64,000 nucleotides of DNA from Planctomycetota bacterium (GCA_022705325.1 JAKJER010000004.1:129724-193723); one strand, 5' to 3'; shown: positions 39,050-60,839, numbered from the stretch's first letter. Notes: a model not told the origin generated them from the letters alone. Translations and numbers: made by a program.

Positions 39050-39754
39050 TCAGAGGGTCTTCTTGATCTGCGTGATGATGTCCTTGACCACCTGTTTGGC
39101 GTCGCGGGTGGCGGCGGCGTTGGAGATGTTCTCCTTGACTGCCTCGTTGTCGGGCGTCTGCTCGATGCCGGCTGCCACGATCTGCAGGGCTTGTTCGGTG
39201 CGGGCGGAGTTGCGCGTGGAGAGGTAGAGCCAGACGGCCGCAGCCACGCCGGCCAGTCCCAGCAAGACGAGGGCGGCCCATGGGTAGGCCTCAAAGGCCA
39301 TGCCCGCCACGATAAAGGCGGCGCCCAGGCCGATGACGCCCAAGCCGATCTTCCGTCCGCCGGAGACGAACATCAGGACGGCGCCACCGGCCAGGGCGCA
39401 GAGGACGCCGGCGGTAATCAGAAGCACGGGGCCGCGGGCCGGCGGCTCGACCGGTTCCATCCCGCCGAAGTCGGCGCCGTCGCCGGTGACTTTGAGCGGC
39501 TTGACATGGGTGATTGTCTCGCCGGGACTGGCGCCCGCCAGCGACATGACTCGCGTGGCCGAGACGGTCCGCGTGACGGTTCGCTGATCGGCCGTTACGG
39601 GGGCGGCTCCGGTCGGGGGAGCATCCGGCAGCCCACGCTGGTAAGACTCGTGAATCCTGGCGGTGCTGCACCCGCCGGCGCACATGGCGGCCAGCAGCAG
39701 GATGATCGGGACGACCAGCATGAAACACGCGAGATACGGACGGTTGGGATTCAT
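39050..39754 (-). CDS. putative lipoprotein/membrane protein (possible lysis-associated)
   Basis: Signal + lipobox-like AAMCAGGC; central TM helices; amphipathic C-terminus. Lies at the distal end of the phage-like cluster. Confidence 0.4.
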   Translation of the reverse strand: MNPNRPYLACFMLVVPIILLLAAMCAGGCSTARIHESYQRGLPDAPPTGAAPVTADQRTVTRTVSATRVMSLAGASPGETITHVKPLKVTGDGADFGGMEPVEPPARGPVLLITAGVLCALAGGAVLMFVSGGRKIGLGVIGLGAAFIVAGMAFEAYPWAALVLLGLAGVAAAVWLYLSTRNSARTEQALQIVAAGIEQTPDNEAVKENISNAAATRDAKQVVKDIITQIKKTL

Positions 39755-39794
39755 GGCGTTCTCCGAAAGGGGGTTCGAAGGGGCGGTTACGGCG

Positions 39795-40001
39795 TCACTT
39801 GTGCGAGCCCAGGACATAGCCCAGGATCATCAGCACGGTCGCCTTGGTCAGACTCCACAGCCGTGCGGCCCATGTGGCCCGACTGCTGAGCAGGGCGTCC
39901 AGTCGTGTTTCGATTCCCGTCAGGCGATGCTCAATTCGTTGGAACTGCTCGGCGCACAGGACGGGCACACTGGGACTGGAGGGGCGTTCACATTCGGACA
40001 T
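39795..40001 (-). CDS. small C-terminally membrane-anchored protein (68 aa; holin-like position)
   Basis: Soluble N-terminus and a single C-terminal TM helix (VLMILGYVLG). Confidence 0.3.
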   Translation of the reverse strand: MSECERPSSPSVPVLCAEQFQRIEHRLTGIETRLDALLSSRATWAARLWSLTKATVLMILGYVLGSHK

Positions 40002-40055
40002 AGAGGTTTCCTGTCTGGTGTTCCCCCGTGGGGCGGGCGGCCACGGCGTGGAGAG

Positions 40056-40331
40056 TTAGAAACGATCCTCGGGACAGACGAAGGCAGGGTCCTGAAGACA
40101 GGCGTAGAGGTCGCCCGAGACGCCGGTCTGGATGTCCACGCACCTTGGCCCGGCTGTTCCGGGGCCTTTGACCAGGCGCCGACACAGTCGTCCGCATCGG
40201 CTGGCGGTGACGCAGAGCATCAGGCGAAGGGCGAAGGCGGCCTCGGCCTTTCCTTCGACGAACAGGCGAGCCAGGTGGGCCCGCCGGCGACGCAGGCCAA
40301 CACCGTCATCGCCTCGACAGCGTGAAGTCAT
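40056..40331 (-). CDS. small Cys-containing hypothetical protein (91 aa)
   Basis: ATG at 40329-40331 sits 5 nt after the upstream stop. Weak call; the composition is Arg-rich. Confidence 0.25.
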   Translation of the reverse strand: MTSRCRGDDGVGLRRRRAHLARLFVEGKAEAAFALRLMLCVTASRCGRLCRRLVKGPGTAGPRCVDIQTGVSGDLYACLQDPAFVCPEDRF

Positions 40332-40338
40332 GCAGCCC

Positions 40339-40770
40339 TCAGAAGGTGATGGTAACGGTCTGGCCCAAGCAGCGGTCCTGGCCCGGGAGGGAGAAGGTGC
40401 CGACGAAACTCCCGTCGACACAGAAGAGATCATCGGCGGAGACGACGCCCTCGAAGATCAGGTCCTCGGTGCCCGCGTAGGCGGCAATCCATACCCGCCA
40501 GTTTCCGTCGGCGTGACAGGAGATGTTAAGGTTGAAGTCGCTGCCGGTTTCCCAGTCGCACCAGCCGCCGTACCAGACCCAGGCGGCTGGCTCGTGGGGC
40601 ACGTAGCCGGCAAAGACGTAGGGGCCGCCGACGCTGCCGACGCATTCGCACTCGCCAGAATCGACCACCACCAGCGGGGCGGGCTGATCGCTCGTGCTGC
40701 AGGCGGCCTGGCTGCATGGCTGTCCGCAGCAGCAGCCAGCCTGGTGGTAGATTCCGCCCATCAGAGGCAC
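40339..40770 (-). CDS. hypothetical Cys-rich protein (143 aa)
   Basis: CCCGQPC...CEC motif and a coherent beta-rich composition; overlaps the upstream gene stop by 10 nt. Confidence 0.45.
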   Translation of the reverse strand: MPLMGGIYHQAGCCCGQPCSQAACSTSDQPAPLVVVDSGECECVGSVGGPYVFAGYVPHEPAAWVWYGGWCDWETGSDFNLNISCHADGNWRVWIAAYAGTEDLIFEGVVSADDLFCVDGSFVGTFSLPGQDRCLGQTVTITF

Positions 40771-41507
40771 CCTCCGTCCACGCCGTTCTCGTAGGCGAAC
40801 CAGTACTCCACCGTGTCTTGTCCTTGCAGTAGGAAGCGGACCTCGTGCATCCGCACCAGGCAGCCGGCCGGGCAGGGCTGGAGTTCAAAGGAATAGCGGC
40901 TGGAGGCCAGGTTGGCAGGATCCACGCCATTGCCTTCGACGTGTCCATCCTGGCCGGTGTTTGCATCCTCGACACTGTTTCGGCCGGGCAAGGTCATGCC
41001 GGCGTCCGACCGTCCGCCGCCGCCGGCCGACCAACCGCCGTAGCCGGCGGCCGTCTTCTGCACCTCCGTCCAGGCATACAGCCACTGGTTGGATCCGGCT
41101 GCCTGAGAGGCGCCGATGCGGGCCCAGAACACGCCGGTGTCGCCGATGTCCAGGAGCACCTCCAGACAGCCGCCCTGGGAGTCCGGGCGGGCGTACTGCT
41201 CCCAGAACCGGACCAGGGCGCCGACCCGACCGGCAGCGCGATTGTCAAAGTCCCGGGCGGTTCTTTCCCGATGGCCGTCGACGGCGTCTACCCAGCCGCC
41301 TTGGCCTTGGTTGGCCTGGCTGTCCCAGTGCTGTTCCCAGATCGTGTACAGCCCCCCGCCGTCATTCTGGGCTATCCGAGCCACGCCCTGGCGAAGCACT
41401 TCCGGGTAGGCGGTGGGCCTGTCATGCAAGACAATCCTGTCGGCCGCGGCGGCCTGGGCCTGCTGGAGCCGGCGAAAGTCGGTCAATTGTCGGCGGGCGA
41501 TGGTCAT
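40761..41507 (-). CDS. hypothetical phage-like structural protein (248 aa)
   Basis: ATGA overlap with the upstream 731-aa gene; Gly/Trp-rich. Confidence 0.5.
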   Translation of the reverse strand: MTIARRQLTDFRRLQQAQAAAADRIVLHDRPTAYPEVLRQGVARIAQNDGGGLYTIWEQHWDSQANQGQGGWVDAVDGHRERTARDFDNRAAGRVGALVRFWEQYARPDSQGGCLEVLLDIGDTGVFWARIGASQAAGSNQWLYAWTEVQKTAAGYGGWSAGGGGRSDAGMTLPGRNSVEDANTGQDGHVEGNGVDPANLASSRYSFELQPCPAGCLVRMHEVRFLLQGQDTVEYWFAYENGVDGGCL

Positions 41508-43699
41508 CGGGTCACCTGAAGCAGGGGGGTGTCCAGGAGGAGTTCGGTCTTGTTGACGCCTTCGGCGAAGTCCCAGTTCACACCGGCGATCAGCGGCACG
41601 TAGGCACTCGTCGCGGCCGCCTGAAGGGAGATGTTCCTGCCTGCGGTGCCGGCCAGGCCCGTGCCGACCGGGTAACGCTGCGGACGAGCCAGGTACCGTA
41701 GCGTGATCGATCCGTGAACCAGGGCGTCCTCGGCGCTGTCGCGGATTCGCCGGGCGTAGGCGTCGATCGACTCACGGGTGGACTCGTAATCGGTGACGGT
41801 GGTGGGCAGCGAGGCGTCCAGGGGCTGGTCGAGCACATCCCGCCAGCGGAACCGGTCATCCGCCCGCACCACGCGATGCGTGGACAGCGGCCAGGAACTA
41901 CTGCCCCCGCGTGGGGCCTGGCCGACGACGGCCCGGTCACACTCCACACTCCCGAACAGTCGCAGCCGAATGCGCGGGCTCGTGCCCCGCAAGGCGTTGT
42001 TCAAAAGCGTCAGATACGTGTAGTGGCCGTAGTCATTCTTCAGGGCGTCGGCGGCGTCATGATAGGGCCTCCAGAGATGAATCCGCGGGTGGTCGATGGT
42101 GAAACCGGCCCGGTCGCTCCAGATACGCACACAGGGGACGCGAATCCAGGAGTCCTCGGCTGAGTCGATGGCGATCTCCACCCGGGCCGGGTACACCTGT
42201 GCGGCTCCGGAGGGCGCTGTACAGGTGAACGTGGCGGAGACGGGTCTGGGCCGGCGGAGGAAGTCATCTTCCTCGCCAACGCCGAAGGCAGACAGGTCCG
42301 GCAGGACCGCCTTGCCCTGCACGTCGCAGATCAGCCCGCTCAAGGCGCCGTCCTCGTTCCACGCGAACGAGCGGAACACATGGTAGTTCTCGTGCGACCA
42401 GGTGTCGAAGCAGACGGCGAAATCCGCGTGGGCTTGCACCGACGCCCAGCCTCCGCCGCCGACGTTCCCGTACGGATCGGCATAGGTCTGGAGGTCGTTG
42501 GCGCTGTCGGTTCGATCCCAGCAGGGGTGCAGGTCGCGGGTCTGAGGGTCGGCGTGAAACTCCAGGCACACCTGGAGACGTCTCTGGTCGCCGATCACGG
42601 TGACGGCGTTGCAGACCTGGTGATTGTCGCGGACGACATGCAGGCGCTGCACCTCCGACCGGCGTCCTTCCAGGTCGGCCGTCGTGGGCCGGCTCGACGT
42701 CAACGGGGCCATGTACGGACGGGCGATTCCGCTGTCATCGCCGGCGGGCCTGTGCAACGGGAACACCAGGAGAGCGTGGCGGGCCAGGCCATCCTCGTCA
42801 GTGCGGGCCCATGGCTCGACGGCGAAGCCGAAACCGACAGGCAGGAGGACAGCGGCGATCGCCTCCAGCAGATTCAGGCCCTCAACGTTGACTTCCGCGA
42901 TGGGCGTGGCGCCCAGCGTGGCGGCGATGGCGTCCCAGACGGTGGCGGCCGACGAGAGCACCTGGCCGTCGTCCACGTACTCGACCAGGCTCCGCAACGC
43001 CGCATAGGCTGTCCAGTACTCCGCCTCGATGGCCGCTCCGCCCGCGAGGGACACCCGCCGGCCGGGCGGCTCGAAGACGCGACATGCACGCTGCGAGTCG
43101 CCGCGGGTGAGCAGCGACCAGGCGGACTGACTGGCGTTGGGCCGCCCGCTCTCGTTGAAGATCACCCGCAGGTATCCGCCGAAGGTGCTCTCGCGAGTGC
43201 ACTGCTGGGGAGGCAGTTCGCCGTGGATCTCCGACTCGTCCGCGGCAGGCAGCTTGTGCCACTGTCCGCTGACGACCAGCCCGCGCAACAGCACCTCCGG
43301 TCCATAGGCGACGTACTGCACTGATTCAACATCGTCGCTCGACTGGACGAGCAGCTCCTGCTGGGCGATGGAGCCTCGAAACCACTCGATCTCCCGGCCG
43401 TCGGGGGCGGACTCGCGCAGAAGCAAGCGATCGCCGGCTCGGCGAGAGGGGGCGTCATCGACGTGCCGCGGCAGACCCTGTGTCGGCCCCTGGCCCAGCA
43501 GGCAGCGGGCGCGGAGCGTGCTGAGACGGCCGTTGCATCCCCAGGACATCCGGACCGGCTGAAGGTGCGATTGGGGCCTGGGGCAGGACCAATCCGCCTG
43601 ACCGGCCTCGCCGCAGACGGTCGACGCGGCATAGAGGACCAGTCGAGGAGGACGGTAGACGACGCCGGTGTCGGGATGTGTAAAGGTCAGGGTGGTCAT
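41504..43699 (-). CDS. large phage-like tail/baseplate-type structural protein (731 aa)
   Basis: The largest ORF in the distal tail-like gene block. Call is by position and size only. Confidence 0.5.
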   Translation of the reverse strand: MTTLTFTHPDTGVVYRPPRLVLYAASTVCGEAGQADWSCPRPQSHLQPVRMSWGCNGRLSTLRARCLLGQGPTQGLPRHVDDAPSRRAGDRLLLRESAPDGREIEWFRGSIAQQELLVQSSDDVESVQYVAYGPEVLLRGLVVSGQWHKLPAADESEIHGELPPQQCTRESTFGGYLRVIFNESGRPNASQSAWSLLTRGDSQRACRVFEPPGRRVSLAGGAAIEAEYWTAYAALRSLVEYVDDGQVLSSAATVWDAIAATLGATPIAEVNVEGLNLLEAIAAVLLPVGFGFAVEPWARTDEDGLARHALLVFPLHRPAGDDSGIARPYMAPLTSSRPTTADLEGRRSEVQRLHVVRDNHQVCNAVTVIGDQRRLQVCLEFHADPQTRDLHPCWDRTDSANDLQTYADPYGNVGGGGWASVQAHADFAVCFDTWSHENYHVFRSFAWNEDGALSGLICDVQGKAVLPDLSAFGVGEEDDFLRRPRPVSATFTCTAPSGAAQVYPARVEIAIDSAEDSWIRVPCVRIWSDRAGFTIDHPRIHLWRPYHDAADALKNDYGHYTYLTLLNNALRGTSPRIRLRLFGSVECDRAVVGQAPRGGSSSWPLSTHRVVRADDRFRWRDVLDQPLDASLPTTVTDYESTRESIDAYARRIRDSAEDALVHGSITLRYLARPQRYPVGTGLAGTAGRNISLQAAATSAYVPLIAGVNWDFAEGVNKTELLLDTPLLQVTR

Positions 43700-43711: not shown

Positions 43712-44311
43712 TCAAGGGACCACGTCGGTCAAGGTGACGCCTTGGTTGGGCGGCAGGCCGATGGCGACGATGGGGCCGACGGGCCGGGCCGGGCGAGACT
43801 CCACCCCGCCGGCCGTTCGGGCGGCGACGTGGAAATAGCGGGTTTGTCCATGTGCCAGCGTCAGGGTACAGGAGTACTCGCCGTCTCGCGTGAAGGGGAC
43901 GGTGAGAGCCGGTTGGGCGCCGGACATCTGCGGTGAGGGACCGTGGTAGACGGTAAACTCGGCCACGGCGGGGCCGCCGGCCGGGGTGAGGCAGGACCAG
44001 GTGAGGCGGACGCGGGCGTTGCTGATGGCCTGGCCGGCCAGGCCCAGGACCCCGGGCGGCCGCGGGCCCACGTAGAGGCCCTGGGCGTCGGTCTCGAACT
44101 GGACCCAGCAGGAGACGCCGTCTTCCTCGATGTCGTCGGCCACGGCCCGCAGGGCGTAGGCGTAGCGGTGCGAGGGGGCGTGGCCCAGGGCCTCCAGTTG
44201 GACCGAACTGGCGGAGGCGGGCGCGGTGGCCACGGGCGTGGAGAAGTCCACGTCGCAGATACTGCCAAGCCCACGGTAGATCCGGTATCCGGTGAAAGGC
44301 ATGATGGGCAC
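43712..44311 (-). CDS. hypothetical phage-like structural protein (199 aa)
   Basis: Co-directional with a 12-nt spacing; beta-rich composition. Confidence 0.45.
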   Translation of the reverse strand: MPIMPFTGYRIYRGLGSICDVDFSTPVATAPASASSVQLEALGHAPSHRYAYALRAVADDIEEDGVSCWVQFETDAQGLYVGPRPPGVLGLAGQAISNARVRLTWSCLTPAGGPAVAEFTVYHGPSPQMSGAQPALTVPFTRDGEYSCTLTLAHGQTRYFHVAARTAGGVESRPARPVGPIVAIGLPPNQGVTLTDVVP

Positions 44312-44326: not shown

Positions 44327-45088
44327 TCAGGACCAGGTGAGCAGGCCGCTGGAAAAGACCCGCCCGTCATGCTCGGCCAGTACGTATCGCGAAGCGGCGC
44401 CGGCGACGGTGAGCGTAAGGACGACGGCGCCGTCGGCGTCGGAGATCAGTTCATAATCGGCGTTGGCCTGCAACTCGCGCAGCAGCGTGCCGGTGGTGAG
44501 CGCGACGCTGTTGCCATCGGCGGAAGGCTGGCCGTAGTCGCCTGTCGCCACCCACACGCGCAGACGCGTGCGGCCCGGCGGGCCTTGAACGGTGACGGTA
44601 CGCGCATCGTCGACCTCGGCGCCGGCACTGACGGCCAGTCCGCCGGCCGGGCGGAACAACGCGAGCGAACGACAGTCGGTGAGGTCAGCCTGGGTGAATG
44701 CGCCGTCGCTCACGATGATCGACGCCAACGGCACGTGGGGCCCCTGGGGAAAGCCGCTGGTGCTGACCGTCAGTGTGCCGTCAGCCAGGAGGTAGACATA
44801 ATTGGTCTGGTTGTTGGTGAGGCCTTGTGCGGACGATCCGGCGTACGTGCGGGCCTGGAAGCCATCCCAGAACCGTCCCGCGCGGACAGCGAAGGTCGAG
44901 GCAGCGTCCTGGTACACACGGAGGGCGTTGCCGGGCGTCCGTCCGAGCGTGAGCAGGCGGTCCAGGCAGCGAAAGACCGTGGTGTAGTAGGGGCTTTCGC
45001 CGATGGCGGGAAAGACGAAGTCGGTGTCGGCATCGGTCGTGCCGCTGAGGGCGTTCGCTTGATCGCTGGTCAATGGCGTTTCGCTCAT
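44327..45088 (-). CDS. hypothetical phage-like structural protein (253 aa)
   Basis: Co-directional and tightly spaced. Confidence 0.45.
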   Translation of the reverse strand: MSETPLTSDQANALSGTTDADTDFVFPAIGESPYYTTVFRCLDRLLTLGRTPGNALRVYQDAASTFAVRAGRFWDGFQARTYAGSSAQGLTNNQTNYVYLLADGTLTVSTSGFPQGPHVPLASIIVSDGAFTQADLTDCRSLALFRPAGGLAVSAGAEVDDARTVTVQGPPGRTRLRVWVATGDYGQPSADGNSVALTTGTLLRELQANADYELISDADGAVVLTLTVAGAASRYVLAEHDGRVFSSGLLTWS

Positions 45089-45102: not shown

Positions 45103-45828
45103 TTACAGGTCGCGGCTGGGCGTGAAGCTCAGGGTCAGGGTGTCGCTTTGAGGGTCGTACGACTCAACGGTCAGGTTCGACGGCGGCTGGGGCGGCGAGG
45201 TGACGGTGATGGTGGACTCCCAGTCAGCCAACACGTTTCCGCAGGCATCCTCGACGACCGTCCGCAACGGGTACTGTCCGCGGGGCAGAGGCGGGGAGAC
45301 CCAGGCGAGCATGTCGCAGTCGAAGCCGAACTCGCCGTATCCGAAGTACAGGCCCAGCCCGTAGGACTCGGGGGCGTCCCAGCCGAACCCGCCAGAATCC
45401 CACGCGGCGCCGAATCCGCCGGCCCGCTCGCCGTCGTCGTAGACTGGCTGACTGTGGACCAGACGCGAGGCCTGGTCCTCGCCGGCCTGGCCCAGATAGA
45501 CGTCCCATCGATCGTCATTGCGGTAAGGGGCAAGGGTTTGCGGCATACGGACGCGGAGCCTGGAGGCGGGTGCGGCGCCCGTAACCTCCCGCCAGTAATT
45601 GACCTCGGCCTGGGCGGGATCGACCGCCAGCAGGAAGACCCGTTCGTCGCCCCCGAGGGCGGGCAGGGCGAACTCGACCTCGCCTGCCTGAGGGACGGTC
45701 CAGGCGGCCAGCCGCCCGGCGACGTAGGCCTGCACAACCTTGTCCGTATGGGCGGTGCGGGCGCGAATGACTCGCCCCAGGACGGTCGGGTATGAGCCGA
45801 GGTACGAGATGCCTGTGGTGTAGTACAT
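45103..45828 (-). CDS. hypothetical phage-like structural protein (241 aa)
   Basis: Co-directional; Gly/aromatic-rich middle region. Confidence 0.45.
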   Translation of the reverse strand: MYYTTGISYLGSYPTVLGRVIRARTAHTDKVVQAYVAGRLAAWTVPQAGEVEFALPALGGDERVFLLAVDPAQAEVNYWREVTGAAPASRLRVRMPQTLAPYRNDDRWDVYLGQAGEDQASRLVHSQPVYDDGERAGGFGAAWDSGGFGWDAPESYGLGLYFGYGEFGFDCDMLAWVSPPLPRGQYPLRTVVEDACGNVLADWESTITVTSPPQPPSNLTVESYDPQSDTLTLSFTPSRDL

Positions 45829-45936
45829 GAATTCCCTCGTTCGCAGTGCGCCCGCAAGGGCGTCTTGAAGATCGCCTCGAACGGCTGGGTGAAAGCTGTC
45901 TCGCGGCCTGCCTCCTGGCAGGCGGCGTCGCGAACG

Positions 45937-46344
45937 CTACGGCGTCAATTGGCGGACGAGGGCCTGGACACGAAGGACCGCGCGATAGCCCGTGGGCCTT
46001 GGCGAGACGCTCATGAGTCCGGCCGGTCCGTACGACAGCAGCAGACAGTTGGAATAGGCCGTGCCGTCCGCGCCCACATAGGCGGCCACGGTGGCGCCGT
46101 CGGCCAACTCCTGCCGGGCGCGCAGCAGGGTCTTGAGGGCGGCGCAGGCCAGATCGGGGGTGGCGGCCTGGGCGGCCAGCACGCCGCGGACCTGAACCTG
46201 GCGTCCCGCCCGCCCGTGGGCCTGGACGTACTCGCCGTCCACCCCGGGCAGCGTCTCGAAGTAGACGCGGGGTCGGGGGCTGGCCGGCGCGTCGGCGCCG
46301 GCTGCGGAACAGAGCGCAACGGAGTTGAACATGGGGCTGGCCAT
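45937..46344 (-). CDS. hypothetical protein (135 aa)
   Basis: Coherent ORF within the cluster. Confidence 0.4.
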   Translation of the reverse strand: MASPMFNSVALCSAAGADAPASPRPRVYFETLPGVDGEYVQAHGRAGRQVQVRGVLAAQAATPDLACAALKTLLRARQELADGATVAAYVGADGTAYSNCLLLSYGPAGLMSVSPRPTGYRAVLRVQALVRQLTP

Positions 46345-46424: not shown

Positions 46425-46910
46425 CTAGAACGCCTGGGGCGTGTGGTCCTGGTCTCCACCGCGAACCAGCGGCGGCTGGGTCTTGTCCTGGGACGGCTGG
46501 ACGTGTTGCACGGCGGGCATGTGCACGTCGCCGTAGATGATGATCGAACCGGTGCCCTGGACCGGCAGCGGCGAGGAGACGTCTTTGCTGTCCTGTACGG
46601 CCTGGCGGACGTGCCGGCCCAGTTCCGAGAACTGCGGCAGGTCGCCGGCGTCGATCGGCGAGGTCTCGGCGGCGGCGCTTTCCAGACCGGCGCCGGGCAG
46701 CCTGTCGCCGCTCGGCTGGCTGGGGAAAGACGCACGTGCGTCTGTAGGGGCGGATAGACCGGTCGGTACGGAGTCGGCTGGATCATCCGACGGCCCCGGC
46801 GAGCCGGTCAGGCGATCGGCTGTGGCGGATCGGGGCACGGGAACGCTGGTGACGCCTCCGGCTGCGACGGCGCCGGCGAGTTGGGCGGTAATGGGAATGG
46901 TGATCGACAT
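46425..46910 (-). CDS. hypothetical protein (161 aa)
   Basis: Coherent ORF; Pro/Ser-rich linker regions. Confidence 0.4.
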   Translation of the reverse strand: MSITIPITAQLAGAVAAGGVTSVPVPRSATADRLTGSPGPSDDPADSVPTGLSAPTDARASFPSQPSGDRLPGAGLESAAAETSPIDAGDLPQFSELGRHVRQAVQDSKDVSSPLPVQGTGSIIIYGDVHMPAVQHVQPSQDKTQPPLVRGGDQDHTPQAF

Positions 46911-46940: not shown

Positions 46941-47498
46941 TCAGGTTGACGACTTTGCTCGTCTGGCGGCCCGCCACAGGCGTCTGATCCAGCCGGAGCG
47001 AGCGGGTTCGGTTGGCTCGGCGGACAACCGGTCCACCGGCAGGCCGGCGGCCCACGCAAGCAACTGGGCAATCCACACGGGGGGCTGATCGGTGTCGAAG
47101 GCAAGCAGGTCGGCCAGTTGATCGTCGGTCAGGTCGTACTGGCGTCTCAGAAGCCGCCCGGCCAGGTCGAAACAGGCGGCCAGAAACTTGCCGCCCTCGC
47201 CTTCGAGTTCCATGTGTCCGCCGACGCTCTGCCCGCAGCGGCGACAGACTCGTGTTTGCAGCGGGGCGAGCTTGAGCAGGCTGCGTGCCCGGCTTTCGGA
47301 ATCTCTGGCGGAACGGAGGCGGATCCCCGTGCGACCGTCGCCGTCGAAGACCGGCTCGACGCGAAGACCCCGCGGGGGGATGCAGAAGTCGACGCCGTGT
47401 AGCGTGAGTTTCGGACACAGGTCGCCGTGAAGGACCTCGTCGCCGACAGGGCGGGCGCAGCGGCTGCGAAGTTGCTTGAAGTAGGGGAGGCTGCTCAT
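46941..47498 (-). CDS. hypothetical protein with a 4-Cys zinc-ribbon-like motif (185 aa)
   Basis: ATG at 47496-47498 (MSSLPYFKQ). C-x10-C ... CRRC motif. It is the only believable part of the 530-aa track ORF. Confidence 0.45.
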   Translation of the reverse strand: MSSLPYFKQLRSRCARPVGDEVLHGDLCPKLTLHGVDFCIPPRGLRVEPVFDGDGRTGIRLRSARDSESRARSLLKLAPLQTRVCRRCGQSVGGHMELEGEGGKFLAACFDLAGRLLRRQYDLTDDQLADLLAFDTDQPPVWIAQLLAWAAGLPVDRLSAEPTEPARSGWIRRLWRAARRAKSST

Positions 47499-47506
47499 GG
47501 GGACTG

Positions 47507-47911: not shown

Positions 47912-47944
47912 GGGAGGTTCCTTTGGGTTCGGATCTGCGGAGGT

Positions 47945-50428: not shown

Positions 50429-50430
50429 TG

Positions 50431-51273: not shown

Positions 51274-51275
51274 GA

Positions 51276-52227: not shown

Positions 52228-53169
52228 TCAGCGGCCGGTGCGAAGGCGATGCGGGGCGAGCAGTCCGGCGAGCAGGGCGGGGTCGGCGAGTTCCTTTGTG
52301 CTGAACTGTCTGCACGCCAGGTGGAAGAGGTAGTTTCGTACGGCCGCCGGCGCCTGGTCTTCGCTGGGGCCGAGGTCGCCGTCGGCCATGGAGGCCAGCG
52401 CCCGAGGCAGGTCCGCCAGCGAGCAGCGCCGGGCGACGCGTGCAATGGTGTAGGAAGCGGGGCCGAGGGCCAGAAGCGGACACCCGGCGGCCAGGGCCTC
52501 GTTGCCCGAGTTGGAGTTGATGGTGACGGCGAAGCGAGCGCCCGCCAGCGCGTCCTGGAGGGACCCGTCGATCACCCGGGCCCTTCCGGTCCAGCCGAAC
52601 CGCCAACTCGAGCTGGGATGGACGCGTACGCGGATGTCCAGGTCGCAGGGGGAGGCGTCCTGGACGGCCTGCACCAGGGGCAAAGGGTGATGCAACTCGC
52701 AGCCGTCGAGTTGGCTGTCGCAGGCGACCTGGAGCAGCAGGAGCAGGTAGCCGTGGCGGCGCGAGCGAAGCGGCTGGGGCAGACGCCCGTAGGAGCCGAC
52801 GAAACGGGCCTGGCCCTCCGGCGGGGCCGGGGCACGGAGGATGTCTTGGCGGGCCCACGAGGCGGTGTGACTGAAGCCCTGCGGGTCGAGTTGCGTGAAG
52901 CGATAGCGATCGAAGAAGCCGCGTTCCATGACGATCACGTGCAGGCCGCGGCGGCGGGCGTCGGCGGCGACCTGGCCCCAGAAGCCCTTTCGGCCGTTCC
53001 ACAGAAACAAGGCTTCGGGCAGTTCGGAGAAGCCGCCCAGGCGGCAATCGGCGCTGGGAGCGAGTACCTGCACCGAGTGGCCCAGGACCTCCAGACCCGC
53101 CTTCAACGAGGCGAACGGCTCTTCGGGGTTGGCGAAGCGGCGGTTGTCGCAGAGGATTCCGACTCGCAT
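52228..53169 (-). CDS. Capsule_synth (KpsC/KpsS/LpsZ-like) family glycosyltransferase-like protein
   Basis: C-terminal FAVTINSNSGNEALAAGCPLLALG resembles the conserved Capsule_synth GT-B motif (V.T.NST.G.EAL..GKPV). ATG at 53167-53169. Confidence 0.45.
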   Translation of the reverse strand: MRVGILCDNRRFANPEEPFASLKAGLEVLGHSVQVLAPSADCRLGGFSELPEALFLWNGRKGFWGQVAADARRRGLHVIVMERGFFDRYRFTQLDPQGFSHTASWARQDILRAPAPPEGQARFVGSYGRLPQPLRSRRHGYLLLLLQVACDSQLDGCELHHPLPLVQAVQDASPCDLDIRVRVHPSSSWRFGWTGRARVIDGSLQDALAGARFAVTINSNSGNEALAAGCPLLALGPASYTIARVARRCSLADLPRALASMADGDLGPSEDQAPAAVRNYLFHLACRQFSTKELADPALLAGLLAPHRLRTGR

Positions 53170-53855
53170 GATGGTCCTGTCAGATGGGTGTAGTGAGTGG
53201 CCGTGACGGCTTGAAGGCGGCTTCGGGGCGAGAGGTTCCACAGATGCCCGCCGAGCTGGCGCACGGCCCGTGCGGCGGCGGCGAACTGCTCCTCGACGCT
53301 CGCAGGCGGCGGGCGGTCGTATTGACCCTGCCAGCCCTCTTCGGCATGGTCATAGGGGCTGACCATCCGCGGGTGGCCGCCGTGGTAATCCAGACCCAGG
53401 AAGTAGATGCGCCGGCAGCCCTGGAAGAACGCCCAGTTGGCGGCCATCAGGCAGACGGACGAGTTGGCCAGGACGGCGGCCTCGCGGTTCTCGTCCAGGA
53501 CGGGCCGCTCCTGCCACGGGCCGTCGAAACGGAGGAACTGGTCGCAGTGGGTCACGCGGCGGTCGGCGGGTCCGACCTTCCAGGCCGGGCAGGGCTTCCA
53601 AAGCTCCTCGTGGTACCGGATGCCCCATTTCTGCTCGTGCCAGAGGTTGCGATAGGTGTCGCGGATGACCATGGCGTGGAGCGTCGCGCGGCGGAGGGCG
53701 GCGAAGGCCAGGCAACGGTTGGTGCCGACGATCAGGAGATCAGGGACCCTTCGCAGTGCGGACCAGAACGCCGGCGGCACCGAGTCGATGGACGGCCCGT
53801 TGCCCAGGACGAGGGCGACCTGGCCCGCGGGCGGCTGTCTGCTCGTGTGGGGCAT
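53103..53855 (-). CDS. GT42/DUF115 (CstII-sialyltransferase / Maf / MptE-like) family protein
   Basis: LVLGNGPSIDSV, LLIVGTNRCLAF and NSSVCLMAANWAFFQGCRRIYFLGLDY parallel CstII IAGNGPSL, DVFRCNQF and SGVYMCAVAIALGYKEIYLSGIDFY. 67-nt overlap with the downstream gene. Confidence 0.5.
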   Translation of the reverse strand: MPHTSRQPPAGQVALVLGNGPSIDSVPPAFWSALRRVPDLLIVGTNRCLAFAALRRATLHAMVIRDTYRNLWHEQKWGIRYHEELWKPCPAWKVGPADRRVTHCDQFLRFDGPWQERPVLDENREAAVLANSSVCLMAANWAFFQGCRRIYFLGLDYHGGHPRMVSPYDHAEEGWQGQYDRPPPASVEEQFAAAARAVRQLGGHLWNLSPRSRLQAVTATHYTHLTGPSCESESSATTAASPTPKSRSPR

Positions 53856-54069: not shown

Positions 54070-55116
54070 CTACACGCTGGCGTTGAAGACGCCCTTGACG
54101 ATCTTGAGCTGGCGGTGATCGTCGTAGTCCTCGTCCCAGTTGGAGGCGGTGGCCAGCTCGGCGTCGGTGGGGTTGTCGGTGGCCGACGCCCACTTCATGC
54201 CGTAGACCTCGTACTCCACGTCGAAGTCCTCGCGGACGTAGGACATGCTGGACTGCTTGAGGATGTCCCGCTGCAGTTCGATGCCCTGGTCGTAGAGGAT
54301 GGTGGCGCCCAGCGAGCCCACGCCCAGGCCCAGCACGACGTATTCGGCGTAGTAGCTGCTGGTGAGGGCGGAGATCAGGGCCGGGGCGTCGCAGACGATG
54401 ACGCGGCGCCCGAAGGCCTGGACCACGTCCTGGTAGATCGTGGCGCCGGCGACGCGGTCGAACTGGTAGTTGCCGATCGAGTCGCCCACCAGGTCGGCGA
54501 AGACGGCCGAGGGCATCACGAAGGCGGCGATGTCCTCGCGGGCGTCGGACATCTTGGCCAGCAGGAGGTTGAGGTGCGCCATCGTGGCGGTGACCTTGGC
54601 CCCGGCGGTCTTGCCCCGGGCGACGTCCAGGATGTGGGCGTCGGCGGCAGGCGTGTCGGCGGAGTCGACGGCCGCCACGGCCGCCGCCAGCAGGTTGTTG
54701 CGGATGCGCAGCAGCTTGTTGTCGGCGAACTGCTGGCCGAGGTTGACCATGGCGGAGGTCATGTCGAACTTCCGCCCGGCCTTGCGGGCCTGGATGTCGG
54801 TGATGCTGACCGGCCCGCAGCCGAGGGTCTGGCGGACGAGCTTGCCGCCGGTCATCTCGAGCTTCTTGACGTCGACGGCGTCGCCGGGGTTGGCGTTGTC
54901 GCGCCGCCCGATCAGGTCGCTGATGGGCTTCCAGCGGGCGGTGTCGGTGAAGTCGCCGCCGGCGGCCATCTGCCGCGCGGGGTCGCTCTCCAGCACGAGG
55001 GTGCCGCCGCTGGCGGCGTTGAACAGGTCGATCTTCTCCACGGTGCGGCGGTATTCCTCCGCGCGCAGCGTGTCTTTGTAGACCATGTCGGAGGGGGCTC
55101 CGTACTCGGTAGTCAT
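54070..55116 (-). CDS. putative major capsid protein (348 aa)
   Basis: Lies immediately after the scaffold-like genes and portal; the size is typical. An unusual low-GC 215-nt leader lies upstream. No family motif could be confirmed by eye. Confidence 0.45.
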   Translation of the reverse strand: MTTEYGAPSDMVYKDTLRAEEYRRTVEKIDLFNAASGGTLVLESDPARQMAAGGDFTDTARWKPISDLIGRRDNANPGDAVDVKKLEMTGGKLVRQTLGCGPVSITDIQARKAGRKFDMTSAMVNLGQQFADNKLLRIRNNLLAAAVAAVDSADTPAADAHILDVARGKTAGAKVTATMAHLNLLLAKMSDAREDIAAFVMPSAVFADLVGDSIGNYQFDRVAGATIYQDVVQAFGRRVIVCDAPALISALTSSYYAEYVVLGLGVGSLGATILYDQGIELQRDILKQSSMSYVREDFDVEYEVYGMKWASATDNPTDAELATASNWDEDYDDHRQLKIVKGVFNASV

Positions 55117-55332: not shown

Positions 55333-56154
55333 TCAGGACTGGCGCCGCTGCGCCAGTTGGAGATAGGCGGCCGGGCCATGGCGGGCGATGAACTCGGCCT
55401 TGGCCCGCGGGTCGCGGTCGAGCGTGCGGATGTCGACGGCCGGCGGCGCCGTGAACCCGCCGTGGGCGCCGCTGCCGGTGTCGTGCGAGGGCGGCAGGAA
55501 GTGGCTGCCTTCCCGGGCGAGCCAGTCGGCCACGAAGTTGCGGACGCTCACGGGCGACTCGTCAGCCGGGTCAAGCTGGACCGCTCCGTTCTCGTCGAGC
55601 ACGCGGACGGCGGGCTTGTCGTCGTCAAGCTCGACGCGGATCCGCGGGCCCAGCAGGGCGGCCGCCTGCGCGAGCATCCGCTCGCCGTTGGCGCAGCCGC
55701 GTCCGACGCCGCAGGCGGCGAGCGTCTTGTGCAGTTCGCTCAGGCCGGCCAGTTCGCGGACGGCGGCGGTCAGCCGCTCGATGCGGGCGTCCTTGACGGC
55801 CAGGTCGTCGGCGGCCAGGCGCAGACGCTGGTACTCCTCGTGCTGCTCGGGCGGCAGGGCCCGCGGACGGAGCTGTTCCAACTCGCCCTCGGCCTTCTGC
55901 GCCCGCTGACGATACTTACGGCTCTGCCCGGCCTCGCGCAGGTACTCCGCCTTCCAGTCGCGGTCGGCGGCGTCGCCGGGGCGATCGGCGCCGGGCGGTT
56001 CGTCAGCCGGCGGCTCCGCGGCTGCAGCCGCGTCGTCGGTTGCGGTGGATGCCGCCCCTCCGGGCGGCGGATCGTCGGCGGCGAAGAACACCCGGAATTC
56101 TTGCGGACGACGGAGACGGGGAGTTTCGAACCTGCTACGGTAGGATGGGATCAT
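55333..56154 (-). CDS. scaffolding-like coiled-coil protein (paralog 2)
   Basis: Ala/Glu/Arg/Leu-rich predicted coiled coil. Its C-terminal LDRDPRAKAEFIARHGPAAYLQLA is shared with 56213-56791. Confidence 0.45.
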   Translation of the reverse strand: MIPSYRSRFETPRLRRPQEFRVFFAADDPPPGGAASTATDDAAAAAEPPADEPPGADRPGDAADRDWKAEYLREAGQSRKYRQRAQKAEGELEQLRPRALPPEQHEEYQRLRLAADDLAVKDARIERLTAAVRELAGLSELHKTLAACGVGRGCANGERMLAQAAALLGPRIRVELDDDKPAVRVLDENGAVQLDPADESPVSVRNFVADWLAREGSHFLPPSHDTGSGAHGGFTAPPAVDIRTLDRDPRAKAEFIARHGPAAYLQLAQRRQS

Positions 56155-56212: not shown

Positions 56213-56791
56213 TCACTTGCTCTTTGCTCTGGCCCTGGCGGCGAGGTCGATGAAGGCAGCGCTGCCGTGTCGGGCGATGAACTGGGCCTTGCGCGCGGGG
56301 TCGCGGTCGAGGGCGGTCAGCAGTTCGACGGGATCGACCTGGTCGACGTCGGCGGCCCCGTTGACGACGGCCCGGGCCTGACGCTGGCTGGCGCTGCGCT
56401 GGAGCGACTGGCGGAGCAGCGGGTTGTCCTGCACCTCGCGCAGGAGGAACTCGGTGGGGTTGGGCTCGATGCGGACCTCGCCGTCGCCCGCGACCCGGCA
56501 CTGGAAGCGGTGAGCGTACGCGGCGGCCGCCTGGCTGGACAGGCCGACGTTGGCGGCTGCCTGGGCCAGGGCCTGGTTCAGCGCCGCGGCCGCGTAGTGG
56601 GTGCGGAGGGCGGCGTTGTCCCGCTCGGCCTGATCGAGCAGGTCGCGCTGGGCGCTGGCGTCCTGGACGGCGGCCAGCAGCTCGTCCACGCGGGCCTGGA
56701 GGTGGGCGTTTTCCTGCTGGAGGGCGGCCAGCGTGTCGGCGTCGGCGGGGGCGTCGGGGGCAGCGGCGGCAGGGGGAGACGTTTCGGACAT
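56213..56791 (-). CDS. scaffolding-like coiled-coil protein (paralog 1)
   Basis: LAALQQENAHLQARVDELLAAVQDA coiled coil; C-terminal LDRDPARKAQFIARHGSAAFIDLA. ATG at 56789-56791. Confidence 0.45.
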   Translation of the reverse strand: MSETSPPAAAAPDAPADADTLAALQQENAHLQARVDELLAAVQDASAQRDLLDQAERDNAALRTHYAAAALNQALAQAAANVGLSSQAAAAYAHRFQCRVAGDGEVRIEPNPTEFLLREVQDNPLLRQSLQRSASQRQARAVVNGAADVDQVDPVELLTALDRDPARKAQFIARHGSAAFIDLAARARAKSK

Positions 56792-56889
56792 AGCGGTTCC
56801 TTTGGCTGGGCGGAGACTGTGTGGCAAGGGGCGGTTCCGTGAAGACGCAAGCGTTTCGGAGGGTCAAGGAGCGGCGGACGACAGAGCCG

Positions 56890-58341: not shown

Positions 58342-58469
58342 GGAGACTCCTGAATTGCGGAATGCGGATTGCGGAATGCGGAATTCGGCATCGGACCACG
58401 GATTGCGGCGCTGCGAACCTGCCTGCCTTTGGGCAGGTTGCGGAATTCGGAATCCGCATCCGCGGTCAG
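58342..58469 (-). repeat. structured intergenic element B: 2 x 14-nt tandem repeat + AACCTGCCTG hairpin + inverted copy
   Basis: ATTGCGGAATGCGG x2 (58354-58381); hairpin AACCTGCC-N8-GGCAGGTT (58416-58439); inverted imperfect copy (58441-58465). Same architecture as 48443-48563. Confidence 0.55.
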
Positions 58470-59894
58470 TTACGACATCCCCAGCCGCACGACGCCGATG
58501 GCGCTGCTGCGCCGCCGATTGACGTAGAAGTATCGCAAGGCGTCGGGAATGTGCTCGTGCTCCTGGGGGTCCTGGGGCTCGTCGATGTACACGCCGTTCA
58601 CGCGGCGGTTGCGATAGTTGAGCATCGCCTGGACGAACGGTCGATTGCCGCCGTGGTCCACGTAGAACAGCGTGGGCGGTCCGGCCGCCGGACGCAGTGC
58701 CGCCCGCACAAGCTGGATGCCGTTGCGGACCTCGCGGGCCTCAGGCGCCAGGGTGTATGTGCACGGGATGCCGGCCTGGGCGAAGGCCTCGATGGCGCTC
58801 AGGCCCGTCTGGTCGTTGCGGTTCCGTCCGGCCGGGTCGCAGTAGGTGGCGGCGACGTCGCTGAGCCGATGCCCGTGGATGTACGCCGCGTGCCGCCCCA
58901 GCGTGGCGTTCTCGGCCTGGTAGGTGTCCAGCACGGTTACGTTGCCCTGTTTGTCCTCTCCCAGCCACAGGCAGACGAAGGTCGCGACGCCCCAGTCAAT
59001 GGCCCGGTAGACCGTCAGAGTCTCTCCGGCACGGGGCAGGGCGTGGACCTGCGGGTCGAAGGCCGCATACACCAGCCCGCGAGCGGTGGGGCGGGCGCAT
59101 TCGTACTCGGCCCGCCAGGTGTCGATGTCCAGCTTGCTGAAGGCCTTGATGGCGTCGTCGATGGCCAGCAGGCCCTCGGCCTCGGCGGCGATTCCCAACA
59201 GGCGGTCCGGGTCGCCGTGGCGCTCGCGAGACTTGGCCAGGCAGGGTTTTCCCAGCGGGCAGTCTCGACAACCCGCGCCGTTGTCGTGTCGTTCGGGCGG
59301 GCACCTCTCGATGACCTCCCAGACGTTCCACTTGTGCAGTTTCACGCCGTTGGCGGGGCGGTTGTCGATGAGCTTGCCCATCAGCCCGCCGCTGCGGTGC
59401 CAGGTGGAGGTATAGACGGTTCGGGCCGGGCGGCCGGGCGAGGAAGCGAGCATCCCGACGGCGGCGCGGTCGATCTCCGGATCGATCTCGTCCAGTTCGT
59501 CCTCGAAAAGGCGGTGGACCTTGGGCCCGCGGACGGCGGCCTGGCTGGCGGCGACGATCTCCATTCGTCCGCCGCCCACCTCGGTGCGGGTTCGGCGGAG
59601 CAGCGGGCGACGCTCGCTCAGCGCGGTGGTGCACCAGCGTTTCCAGTACTCGTAGAGCGTGCCGGCCTGCGCCTGGCTGCCCGAGAGCACCCGGGCCTCC
59701 AGGCCGTCGGTCCGCGAGAACTCGCAGGCCGCGATGACGGACGCCGAGAGCGTCTTGAGCCCCGAGCGGCAGGCCCAGGCGGCCATGTCCTGATGCGAGT
59801 TGGTGATCGCGTCGGCGACGAAGCGAAGCGGCGTGCTGTGGCCGGGCGTGAATGACTTGTCGGGCAGCACCAGGTCGAAGTGGGTCCGGAGCAT
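58470..59894 (-). CDS. phage terminase large subunit
   Basis: ATPase region with VHRLFEDELDEIDPE (Walker-B-like acidic block) and a C-terminal RNaseH-like nuclease region (YCDPAG...D). N-terminal start uncertain (59894 vs 59999). Confidence 0.7.
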   Translation of the reverse strand: MLRTHFDLVLPDKSFTPGHSTPLRFVADAITNSHQDMAAWACRSGLKTLSASVIAACEFSRTDGLEARVLSGSQAQAGTLYEYWKRWCTTALSERRPLLRRTRTEVGGGRMEIVAASQAAVRGPKVHRLFEDELDEIDPEIDRAAVGMLASSPGRPARTVYTSTWHRSGGLMGKLIDNRPANGVKLHKWNVWEVIERCPPERHDNGAGCRDCPLGKPCLAKSRERHGDPDRLLGIAAEAEGLLAIDDAIKAFSKLDIDTWRAEYECARPTARGLVYAAFDPQVHALPRAGETLTVYRAIDWGVATFVCLWLGEDKQGNVTVLDTYQAENATLGRHAAYIHGHRLSDVAATYCDPAGRNRNDQTGLSAIEAFAQAGIPCTYTLAPEAREVRNGIQLVRAALRPAAGPPTLFYVDHGGNRPFVQAMLNYRNRRVNGVYIDEPQDPQEHEHIPDALRYFYVNRRRSSAIGVVRLGMS

Positions 59895-59988
59895 CCTGCA
59901 AAGCGGCCGGAGGTCCGGCCGCGAGGGCTCGCCTTTCGCGCTCGACCGCTCTGCCCGATCGGGGGCCGGTTGGCAGCGGGTCCTGGGC

Positions 59989-60420
59989 TTACTCATCATC
60001 GGGTGGCTCGATGGGCATGGCCTTGAGGCGCTCGCGGACGTTCTGGAGGTGGCGCCGCAGGCTCAACTCCGACGGGTCATCGCTCGGACCGGGATCGTCC
60101 GTGTCGGGGCCGGGAGGGAAGAGCTGGAGCAGGAACTCGCGGCACTTGCGGCCGAGTTCGCCCTTGTCCTCCTTGCCCACCTGAAAATGGTCGAGGATCA
60201 GTTCCTCCCGCAGACCCTTGCCCAGGCGGGCCGTTTCCGCGTCGGCCAGCCGTCTCATCTGGTCCAAACGTTGTTTGAATGCCGGCCGGCGCTGGCCGTT
60301 CACGAGCGCCACCAGGTTCTTGTACGTCATGTTGTGCTTCGCGGCTATCTGCCTGAGCGGCAGCCTGGCCGAGACCAGGTCGCAGATCAACTCGTCGTCG
60401 TTATAGTAGCTCCGTCTCAT
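59989..60420 (-). CDS. small HTH protein (terminase small subunit candidate), paralog B
   Basis: ATG at 60418-60420. PLRQIAAKHNMTYKNLVALVNGQRRP HTH is a paralog of 60417-60839; acidic C-terminus. Confidence 0.45.
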   Translation of the reverse strand: MRRSYYNDDELICDLVSARLPLRQIAAKHNMTYKNLVALVNGQRRPAFKQRLDQMRRLADAETARLGKGLREELILDHFQVGKEDKGELGRKCREFLLQLFPPGPDTDDPGPSDDPSELSLRRHLQNVRERLKAMPIEPPDDE

Positions 60421-60839
60421 GCGTTTCCCTCGTGGCTGATCGTTCGTGAAAGAATGTACTCGCGCGATCTTCCGGCCGCGCGGGAGGAGCCCGTCCGGAT
60501 GATCCGCATGTGGCGGCGGAAGGCGGCCAGGGCTTTGCGCCGGACAAGAGCCCGCAGGCGGTTGTCGAGTGTGCGGCGGGCCTTGCGGATGTCCCGCTGG
60601 AGGTGAGGACGGCGCTGGCCCGCGGCGATCTTGTTGACCAGTTCGACCGAAACGCCCAACTCGCGGGCGATCTCGGCGGTCGGTCGGCGCCTTCGAGCCA
60701 GTTCGAAGACCAGGACGGCCTCGTCGTACGCTTTGCGCTGGGGGACCACTGGCCGATCCTTGGGCGTTTCGGGGTTCAGATGCTTTGCCTTTCCCGCATC
60801 GGGGGCTGCCGTTGTTTGTCCCTCCCGTGGTAAGGACAT
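60417..60839 (-). CDS. small HTH protein (terminase small subunit or regulator candidate), paralog A
   Basis: ATG at 60837-60839. PTAEIARELGVSVELVNKIAAGQRRP HTH. It is the first gene of the cluster. Confidence 0.45.
   Translation of the reverse strand: MSLPREGQTTAAPDAGKAKHLNPETPKDRPVVPQRKAYDEAVLVFELARRRRPTAEIARELGVSVELVNKIAAGQRRPHLQRDIRKARRTLDNRLRALVRRKALAAFRRHMRIIRTGSSRAAGRSREYILSRTISHEGNA

Follow-up and report, generated by a model that had tools for sequence, protein, structure and literature searches.

A vertically inherited phage-like packaging, head and tail operon in a Planctomycetota chromosome: domesticated prophage or gene transfer agent?

What keeps the packaging, head and tail genes of a phage together in a bacterial chromosome once the genes for moving and replicating are gone? 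We address this question for a cluster of 28 genes in an uncultured Planctomycetota bacterium (GCA_022705325.1), located in a stretch of 64,000 nucleotides (JAKJER010000004.1:129724-193723) that we refer to as the window. The initial annotation, made from the sequence alone, proposed that the cluster is either a gene transfer agent (GTA)-like element or a domesticated or defective prophage. Our computational analysis leads us to favor, with modest confidence, a domesticated defective prophage, in which the late operon of a temperate phage of Planctomycetota has been vertically inherited and kept intact by selection. Integration, regulation, replication and recognizable lysis genes have been lost from the cluster. 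It is plausible that the remaining genes produce a GTA-like or PBSX-like particle.

A late operon inherited with its flanks

The cluster occupies the minus strand from 39050 to 60749, where 28 tightly packed, co-directional open reading frames (ORFs), defined by third-position GC and the gene calls on record, form one late-phage operon of 21.7 kb. The first gene, a small helix-turn-helix (HTH) gene, starts at 60749, and the last ORF ends at 39050; we designate the ORFs c01 to c28 in this order. Coding density is 94%, six ORF pairs overlap at start and stop, and GC content in the window is 64-69%. The co-directional, overlapping structural cluster described in the initial annotation is real, with its strand, limits and gene number corrected to these values. 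Hidden Markov model (HMM) matches also uphold the large terminase (TerL), the portal-like protein and the major capsid protein (MCP)-like protein named there (phrog_5653, phrog_145 and PF20036, respectively). Eighteen of the 28 ORFs match nothing in Pfam or PHROGs, c13 and c27 have sub-threshold HMM matches only, and c21 is identified by its fold only.

No ORF in the cluster matches an integrase, recombinase, transposase, repressor, replication or lysin family in Pfam or PHROGs, and no integrase, repressor or replication module lies within 39 kb to the left or 12.4 kb to the right, the latter distance having been reached by extending the source contig 9.2 kb past the window end. A tRNA scan detected no tRNA at the locus. 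A direct-repeat search from 36 to 64 kb returned only short, imperfect matches in coding regions and no attachment (att)-like repeat. HTH_3, Cro/CI, DnaB, primase and RusA-type families, all of which occur in relatives of the cluster, are found neither in it nor beside it. These searches bear out the absence of integrase, switch, replication genes and tRNA that had been noted by eye. An integrase, repressor and replication module with att repeats just outside the cluster would have made it an ordinary prophage, and a lack of HMM support for any virion protein would have removed its phage character; we found neither.

Both flanks are host DNA, as first suggested. A secreted low-complexity protein, an extracytoplasmic function (ECF) sigma module, an N_methyl protein, DUF1097 and CarB adjoin the cluster on the left, followed by 31 kb of housekeeping genes (FecCD, BtuR, epimerases, GGDEF, glycosyltransferases). 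On the right are proteins of 263, 404 and 808 aa, a PCMT methyltransferase, an inositol phosphatase, a phosphodiesterase and a GGDEF protein.

The site is fixed in the source population. The window is 100% identical to contig MWDR01000006.1 of GCA_002071695.1 ('Planctomycetes bacterium ADurb.Bin126'), and the cluster lies at the identical site in seven other metagenome-assembled genomes or metagenomes at 99.1-99.995% nucleotide identity, with 12-16 contigs on record. Single-nucleotide differences among these conspecific assemblies are so few (none in 21 of the 28 cluster genes) that ratios of non-synonymous to synonymous substitution rates (dN/dS) cannot be estimated at that level.

Comparison with sister lineages provides these estimates. 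A 14.4-kb contig, L073, carries orthologues of c18 to c28 and then the same flank as the window, in the order small secreted protein, ECF sigma factor, 84-aa and 150-aa proteins, N_methyl protein, DUF1097. Synonymous divergence (dS) between L073 and the window is 0.38-0.93 for cluster genes and 0.46-0.77 for flank genes. The corresponding dN/dS is 0.07-0.34 for c19 to c28, 0.51 for c18 and 0.07-0.24 for the flanks; the range includes c24 to c26 (0.14-0.29, indicating purifying selection), c27 (0.07) and c28 (0.19). ORF lengths agree to within three residues, and no stop or frameshift interrupts about 8 kb. Head genes compared with a third contig (L072) give dN/dS of 0.23-0.45, the portal compared with a further sister contig (L076) gives 0.20, and c14 to c23 compared with a closer lineage (dS 0.07-0.22) give 0.12-0.48. 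A value for c13 against this closer lineage was an artefact of ungapped alignment and was discarded.

The cluster has diverged at the pace of its host, is vertically inherited and is under purifying selection. Shared flanks, a dS equal to that of host genes and intact ORFs argue that the truncated element was already at this site before the lineages split. Gene content, boundaries, vertical inheritance and selection are the directly supported part of our reading, and the domesticated or defective prophage half of the initial annotation is sustained by them: the site is fixed, the sister flanks are shared, dS is host-like, dN/dS is 0.07-0.5 and the ORFs are intact.

Packaging, head, tail and neighboring genes

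The features of the cluster are collected in Table 1. Of the alignment columns with 95% or higher conservation across 41 TerLs of the family, the window TerL retains every one (115 of 115). These would include a Walker A-like set (R78/G80/K82/T83), D167-E168 and acidic residues D335/D388/D486, as predicted for the ATPase and nuclease. Searched against 50,697 deposited phage genomes, TerL gives one weak match, and the best match of the portal is an annotated portal at 24-26% identity. The c02 gene ends 11 nt inside the start of TerL. Both c01 and c02 had been described as TerS-like HTH proteins; their position and an HTH-like motif agree with this, and HMM searches give no match. By eye the two share an HTH...GQRRP motif, BLASTP between them is not significant, and c01-like ORFs of 29-40% identity precede TerL in a few relatives.

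Table 1. Features of the operon and its upstream region, in window coordinates
Feature	Coordinates	Strand	Evidence or observation
c01, 110 aa, small HTH-like protein, TerS-like by position only	60417..60749	-	called gene; no Pfam or PHROGs match
c02, 143 aa, second small HTH-like protein	59989..60420	-	no HMM match
TerL (large terminase), 509 aa	58470..59999	-	phrog_5653 4e-8; phrog_10250 3e-4; phrog_9 7e-3
Portal, 483 aa	56890..58341	-	phrog_145 4.5e-34
c05, 192 aa, coiled-coil-like, scaffold-type C-terminal motif	56213..56791	-	no HMM match
c06, 273 aa, scaffolding protein	55333..56154	-	phrog_206 head scaffolding protein, 1.3e-11
MCP, 348 aa, SPP1 Gp13-like	54070..55116	-	PF20036 2.8e-48; phrog_247 2.2e-33
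c08, 250 aa, enzyme-like, invariant N-G-x-S-x-D motif	53103..53855	-	no Pfam or PDB match
c09, 292 aa, Capsule_synth (KpsC/KpsS-type sugar transferase)-like	52228..53106	-	PF05159 6.5e-6, 26.3 bits (cutoff 20)
c10 (149 aa) and c11 (153 aa), lineage-specific	51276..52183	-	no homologue in any related locus; no HMM match
c12, 280 aa, concanavalin-A/LamG-domain virion protein	50431..51273	-	PF13385 1.3e-17; phrog_8510 virion structural protein 1.7e-11
c13, 329 aa, C-terminal Ig-like/CarboxypepD_reg-like domain	49439..50428	-	weak Big_1 5.5e-4 and CarboxypepD_reg 7.3e-4, both below curated cutoffs
c14, 286 aa, most conserved post-capsid (neck/tail) gene of the family	48564..49424	-	present in 28 related loci
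c15 (47945-48442), c16 (47507-47911) and c17 (46941-47498), small virion-module genes	46941..48442	-	no family matches
c18, 161 aa, Pro/Ser-rich, fast-evolving	46425..46910	-	47% aa identity, dN/dS 0.51 vs L073
c19 (45937-46344) and c20 (45103-45828), tail-module genes	45103..46344	-	homologues in about 20 loci
c21, 253 aa, tail-fibre/receptor-binding-type	44327..45088	-	AlphaFold2 (AF2) model, predicted local distance difference test (pLDDT) 85.7; Foldseek, cyanophage A-1(L) tail fibre 8kec, E 2.4e-5
c22, 196 aa, possible minor tail protein	43712..44302	-	weak phrog_23968 minor tail 1.2e-4; phrog_1696 1.8e-4
c23, 731 aa, largest ORF, not tape-measure-like	41504..43699	-	position; 39-40% homologues at same position in relatives
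c24 (40761-41507), c25 (40339-40761, Cys-rich) and c26 (40056-40331), lineage-specific	40056..41507	-	no family matches
c27 (39795-40001, C-terminal transmembrane helix) and c28 (39050-39754, lipoprotein-like signal, transmembrane helices)	39050..40001	-	hydropathy, sequence
Conserved non-coding block	60815..60867		66-118 nt upstream of c01; about 52 of 53 nt identical to L076
g263, 263 aa, divergent neighbor	61124..61915	+	adjoins element in two lineages; 84% orthologue in L076

Two scaffold paralogs had been proposed. The assignment of c06 stands by its PHROGs match, and c05 has in common with it only a 29-aa C-terminal motif (62% identity, E 8e-9). The enzyme-like genes c08 and c09 (52228-53855) directly follow the capsid gene, an arrangement also seen in the related loci L067, L068 and L078, and may point to glycosylation of the virion. 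Homologues of c09 carry the same precomputed Capsule_synth assignment, and c08 is kept beside the MCP gene across the window-type family, including L068 with its phage early genes. The estimate of about 20 tail or fibre ORFs in the initial annotation needs correcting: most of these ORFs have no family match, and c09, perhaps also c08, resembles a sugar-transferase-type enzyme.

Between c09 and c14 lies a lineage-specific insertion, c10 to c13 (49439-52183), which has the lowest GC in the cluster (0.63-0.67), codes for a LamG-domain protein, an Ig-like protein and two ORFs without a family, and is absent from all distant relatives. Its LamG-domain protein, c12, is probably a fibre or decoration protein and has the lowest GC (0.63) of any cluster gene longer than 100 aa.

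An alignment of 19 c14 sequences has 28 invariant columns, and c14 is found in only 55 clusters among 1.84 billion representatives; it has no match in PHROGs, the PDB or deposited phages (tblastn, 50,697 genomes). Homologues of c15 to c17 with 36-54% identity occur in the same order in relatives, and c16 is 29% identical to a gene of a terminase-less cluster, L075. Among the related loci compared, c18 has no homologue beyond the closest lineages. The c20 protein has a Gly/Trp-rich middle and an Ig-like C-terminus, and its profile matches the bacterial Ig-like domain protein 2yn3 (3.4e-5). A search of BFVD with the AF2 model of c21 recovers Caudovirales proteins, including DUF2793, Mtd_N and receptor-binding proteins, and together with the Foldseek match the modeled fold supports a tail fibre. 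The c23 product is a probable distal tail or host-recognition protein, judging from its position; it is 24% identical to a gene of L075 and has no match in Pfam, PHROGs or the same deposited phage genomes (tblastn). At the end of the operon, c27 and c28 are possible release, holin-like or exclusion membrane proteins, with no match to a lysin or holin family in Pfam or PHROGs. No ORF of the 28 resembles a tape measure or a sheath. Profile searches of the PDB with alignments of c14, c16, c20 and c08 gave nothing useful, and a PHROGs scan of 101 homologues of c14 to c22 gave two weak matches only. Pelagibacter phage HTVC111P, a weak portal relative, was considered as a guide to the order of tail genes and rejected because its gene order is not comparable.

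Upstream of the operon, the conserved block at 60815-60867 is a candidate promoter or operator. It is nearly unchanged in L076, where neighboring genes have a dS of 0.3-0.4 and the terminase genes have been deleted. Further near-identical blocks separate g263 from c01 in the same comparison, at 60942-60968 and 61061-61099; the latter contains an inverted repeat, TTGTCA-N17-TGACAA, that overlaps a sigma-70-like promoter for g263. Apart from this site and a hairpin after the MCP gene, promoter and terminator scans returned nothing above shuffled expectation. Tandem repeats occupy two gaps in the operon, TGCGGAA x4.7 between TerL and portal (58356-58388) and GATTTGCGATTGTC x2.3 between c14 and c15 (48456-48487), and L076 has a different short repeat at the TerL/portal position. 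The block at 60815-60867 and the adjacent ECF sigma module might conceivably bear on control of the operon by host regulators.

The divergent neighbor g263 is one of 47 proteins that form a family in which an N-terminal Cys motif, NYCDRWCxRC-x5-C, is invariant. The AF2 model of g263 is all-helical (pLDDT 87.7) and has no informative match to solved folds. In the fetched related loci, g263 is beside no distant relative. The gene for the 404-aa protein (61967-63181, minus strand) is hypervariable among conspecific assemblies, with 28 synonymous and 25 non-synonymous differences as well as indels, in contrast to most cluster genes, which show no differences; in L076 the 404-aa gene is replaced by another. 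On the opposite side, between the cluster and the ECF sigma module, 38555-38962 (plus strand) codes for a 135-aa protein with a signal peptide and a repetitive body extremely rich in Tyr, Ser and Pro, which is 82% identical at the same place in L073. Rfam identifies a cobalamin riboswitch at 18498-18691 (minus strand, 115 bits), unrelated to the cluster, near genes for FecCD, a periplasmic binding protein and a corrinoid adenosyltransferase.

Relatives in Planctomycetota and competing readings

The portal has 120 homologues, and all those with a taxon name come from Planctomycetota or Phycisphaerae. Species-representative genomes contribute 24 loci to the family and IMG/VR contributes 32 contigs; ORFs in the fetched loci were called heuristically. 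Its core is TerL, portal, c14 to c17 and c19 to c22; closer relatives additionally share c05, the scaffold, the MCP, c08 and c09, and c10 to c13, c18 and c24 to c28 are lineage-specific. The same-locus test proposed in the initial annotation has a divided outcome: conspecific assemblies and sister lineages share the site, and distant relatives are elsewhere, with g263 and the 404-aa gene absent from every fetched relative of 30-66% portal identity. L067 and L070 are structural-only, have host genes and a few small HTH genes upstream and are bounded on one side; L078/79 are also structural-only and bounded on one side, ending directly at frr-pyrH-tsf. In several relatives the late operon is directly preceded by an Xre-type HTH_3 gene.

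We also searched the ends of related loci for mobility genes, using crude ORF calls. Pooled Pfam scans found no integrase among the 25 of 69 families listed for 75 ORFs that precede TerL in 13 genome loci, where a weak integrase match is possible among the unlisted families, or among the 25 of 26 families listed for 102 ORFs that follow c21 in 12 metagenome loci gathered with the c21 alignment. The families listed include housekeeping families, four HTH_3 proteins and one DnaB/SSB pair. Phage-ZRK32 has been reported from a cultured Phycisphaerae strain (PMC10945688). It is absent from the deposited-phage matches of every query, and its presence in the collection was not checked.

What might the operon do? 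Given an intact terminase-portal-capsid-tail set and no excision or replication, the most economical role would be to form particles that package chromosomal DNA. Expression, particle formation, packaged substrate, release and uptake are predicted here from the gene set. Transcription of the 28 genes as a single unit would start from the conserved region that precedes c01. Procapsids would be built from the portal, the Gp13-like capsid protein and the scaffolds c05/c06; they may be modified with sugars by c08/c09, and c01/c02 and TerL would fill them by headful packaging. As the element cannot excise or replicate, the substrate would have to be chromosomal DNA, packaged either at random, in a GTA/PBSX-like manner, or directionally from a pac site inside the cluster, in a manner resembling lateral transduction. 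A tail lacking a recognizable tape measure or sheath and bearing LamG/Ig-type and c21 fibres would then be joined to the head, and the particle would be released with the aid of the membrane proteins c27/c28 and, presumably, a lysin.

Several observations weigh against a maintained, DNA-packaging prophage derivative. Shared neighbors are known for close lineages only, and the two flanks were seen on separate short contigs. Defective prophages are often under purifying selection, which alone does not prove particle production. Neither a lysin or holin family nor a regulator is recognizable in the 28 ORFs. Distant relatives occupy unrelated loci, those that are bounded lying between unrelated housekeeping genes. 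L068 (JAJFUU010000025.1) has the same module order (TerL 58%, portal 57% and MCP 51% identical, together with c08, c09 and c14 to c17) and carries early genes over at least 8.5 kb upstream of TerL; with a RusA resolvase, an N6/N4 DNA methylase, a sigma-70 region-4 protein and many small ORFs, it resembles a section of a complete phage genome. In L076 (1-4670), where the portal is 90% and the g263 orthologue 84% identical, a clean 2.44-kb deletion has removed c01, c02 and TerL (window 58353-60794). The g263 intergenic region is joined straight to the portal, which now follows the promoter region, and a TerL 3' stub and the conserved upstream block are kept. This loss, seen in one contig, implies that packaging is dispensable in at least one related population. 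Finally, the clusters L075 (3777-17704) and L077 (5161-16953), located on a 402-kb contig and in the complete 3.25-Mb genome of a Mucisphaera sp., respectively, have no adjacent terminase or integrase. These clusters of 12-14 kb are of another portal and capsid type (SPP1_portal, SU10_MCP), have c16- and c21-like tail genes (c23-like also in L075), are bounded by housekeeping genes on both sides and, judged by their genes, add a second type to the structural-only phage-like clusters of Phycisphaerae.

A strict GTA, a version of the domesticated reading in which a host-controlled particle delivers roughly random chromosomal fragments to related cells and is kept for this transfer, is possible but doubtful. 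It is consistent with structural-only content, vertical inheritance, purifying selection, a TerL intact at all conserved positions, host-like GC of the cluster and the recurrence of structural-only clusters in the phylum. However, the terminase is deleted in L076, the element has no conserved locus across the wider taxon, its head would probably carry the whole 21.7-kb cluster, unlike in GTAs described so far, and no regulator or lysis enzyme is recognizable, while the 57%-identical L068 has phage early genes. The MCP is 28-31% identical to those of its nearest deposited relatives, phages of 36-45 kb, and this capsid type suggests a head of about 40 kb. The GTA half of the initial annotation remains a candidate reading, with the terminase loss, the scattered loci and the early genes of L068 against its strict form. 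Some of the same observations could instead indicate a non-functional prophage remnant that is being lost and whose intactness reflects recent inactivation or chance. The deletion of TerS/TerL in L076, the missing regulator and lysin, the relative with early genes and the c10-c13 insertion with its GC dip, which suggests past mosaic exchange, all speak for such a remnant. We nevertheless think it unlikely. Lineages about 0.6 dS apart share one truncated architecture, in which the tail end borders the ECF-sigma flank; over such a distance neutral decay would give dN/dS near 1 and broken ORFs. Instead, about 8 kb are free of stops and frameshifts and dN/dS resembles that of the host flanks (0.07-0.34), and the same holds at a dS of about 0.1.

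Alternatively, the particle may be maintained for a benefit that does not involve DNA packaging, such as PBSX-like killing, competition, adhesion or defence, which would make the terminase expendable. The structural genes of L076 are intact and selected (portal dN/dS 0.20) despite terminase loss, L075 and L077 are terminase-less and otherwise intact between housekeeping genes, and fibre, LamG and Ig-like proteins are abundant. Yet TerL in the window lineage is fully conserved without a disabling change, the L076 deletion is undated, so that selection on the portal may predate it, and terminases could sit elsewhere in the genomes with terminase-less clusters. We consider this explanation improbable. 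A still-mobile phage or satellite, with integration and replication functions that are unrecognized or come in trans from a helper phage or from host recombinases, is very unlikely. The 18 unmatched ORFs leave room for such functions, relatives occupy many different chromosomal sites, and IMG/VR classes related contigs as viral. But no integrase, recombinase, transposase or replication family was found in the element and, among the families listed, no integrase at the ends of its relatives; att repeats and tRNAs are missing, the site is identical in all conspecific assemblies, and an element dS equal to that of the host flanks argues against independent acquisition.

A domesticated defective prophage thus remains our preferred reading, and a virion and packaging operon that is selected without self-propagation is the genomic signature by which known GTAs were recognized. 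More broadly, immobilized head-tail clusters across the phylum (in Phycisphaerae), including the 12-14 kb terminase-less ones, might be kept for DNA-carrying or otherwise host-beneficial particles, and so form an independently evolved GTA-like system, the first in the Planctomycetes-Verrucomicrobia-Chlamydiae (PVC) superphylum and possibly one with sugar-modified capsids; we regard this extension as rather speculative and hold it at low confidence. A full-text literature search found no paper describing a GTA in Planctomycetota and no study of domesticated prophages in Phycisphaerae, and, as far as we know, little has been established about how genes are transferred horizontally in Planctomycetota. 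The presence of bounded clusters in other Phycisphaerae, including the complete Mucisphaera sp. genome, means that cultures may come to offer a test of the GTA idea. Particles, if made, would affect gene flow in the anaerobic-digester communities where the ADurb.Bin126 organism recurs. If none are made, the locus is still a clear example of a 22-kb defective prophage that has been retained over a long time. In either case it contains neck and tail proteins without relatives among the 50,697 deposited phage genomes (c14 and c23 queried).

Comparison with known systems

Partial sets of phage structural genes reside in chromosomes as capsid-forming phage-inducible chromosomal islands (cf-PICIs) and tailocins, and the window cluster resembles both in this respect. 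cf-PICIs carry integrase and replication genes and have no tails, and tailocins have no capsid, portal or terminase. Unlike a cf-PICI or PICI, the cluster has no integrase or replication gene and includes fibre and tail-type genes; unlike a tailocin or contractile injection system, it has capsid, portal, scaffold and terminase. An intact temperate prophage would have a recombinase with att repeats and a repressor switch with a replication module, none of which was found in the cluster or in the 39 kb and 12.4 kb beside it. Where L068, a related (pro)phage locus, has early genes upstream of TerL, the window has host genes.

In PBSX of Bacillus subtilis, a source of phage-like killer particles into which host DNA is packaged, terminase, capsid and tail genes are likewise kept at one site in a late operon that cannot move and has no integration or replication genes. 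Several relatives of the window cluster share with it an Xre-type HTH_3 gene upstream, whereas the window copy has no HTH_3 repressor. The cluster also differs from PBSX in lacking contractile sheath and tube proteins and a recognizable holin/amidase cassette, and its proteins are unrelated and come from a different phylum.

RcGTA of Rhodobacter capsulatus (Alphaproteobacteria) is encoded by packaging, head and tail genes that lie co-directionally in the chromosome, with no integrase, replication or lysogeny genes among them, and like the window cluster it is vertically inherited under purifying selection. The RcGTA cluster is about 15 kb, smaller than the 21.7 kb seen here, and its families comprise HK97-type capsid and portal proteins and GTA-specific domains. 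There is no sequence homology between the two: the window MCP is SPP1 Gp13-like (PF20036), no RcGTA-type family is matched, and the Pfam matches in the cluster are PF20036, PF13385 and PF05159, with sub-threshold Big_1 and CarboxypepD_reg matches on c13. The window capsid is probably full-size, the locus is conserved among close lineages only, and random packaging, host regulation and transfer are predicted at most. In short, the cluster shares with GTAs a packaging, head and tail gene set, the lack of integration, excision, replication and switch genes, and vertical inheritance under purifying selection, and it differs from them in having no conserved orthologous locus across the wider taxon.

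Domesticated defective prophages are immobilized mobile elements under purifying selection (reviewed in PMC8987985). The window cluster resembles them in its lost autonomy, its vertical inheritance and a dN/dS well below 1, and this is the category that our data directly support. It differs from domesticated prophages generally in that a whole virion and packaging module is retained, rather than single exapted genes, and in that this arrangement recurs in related clusters.

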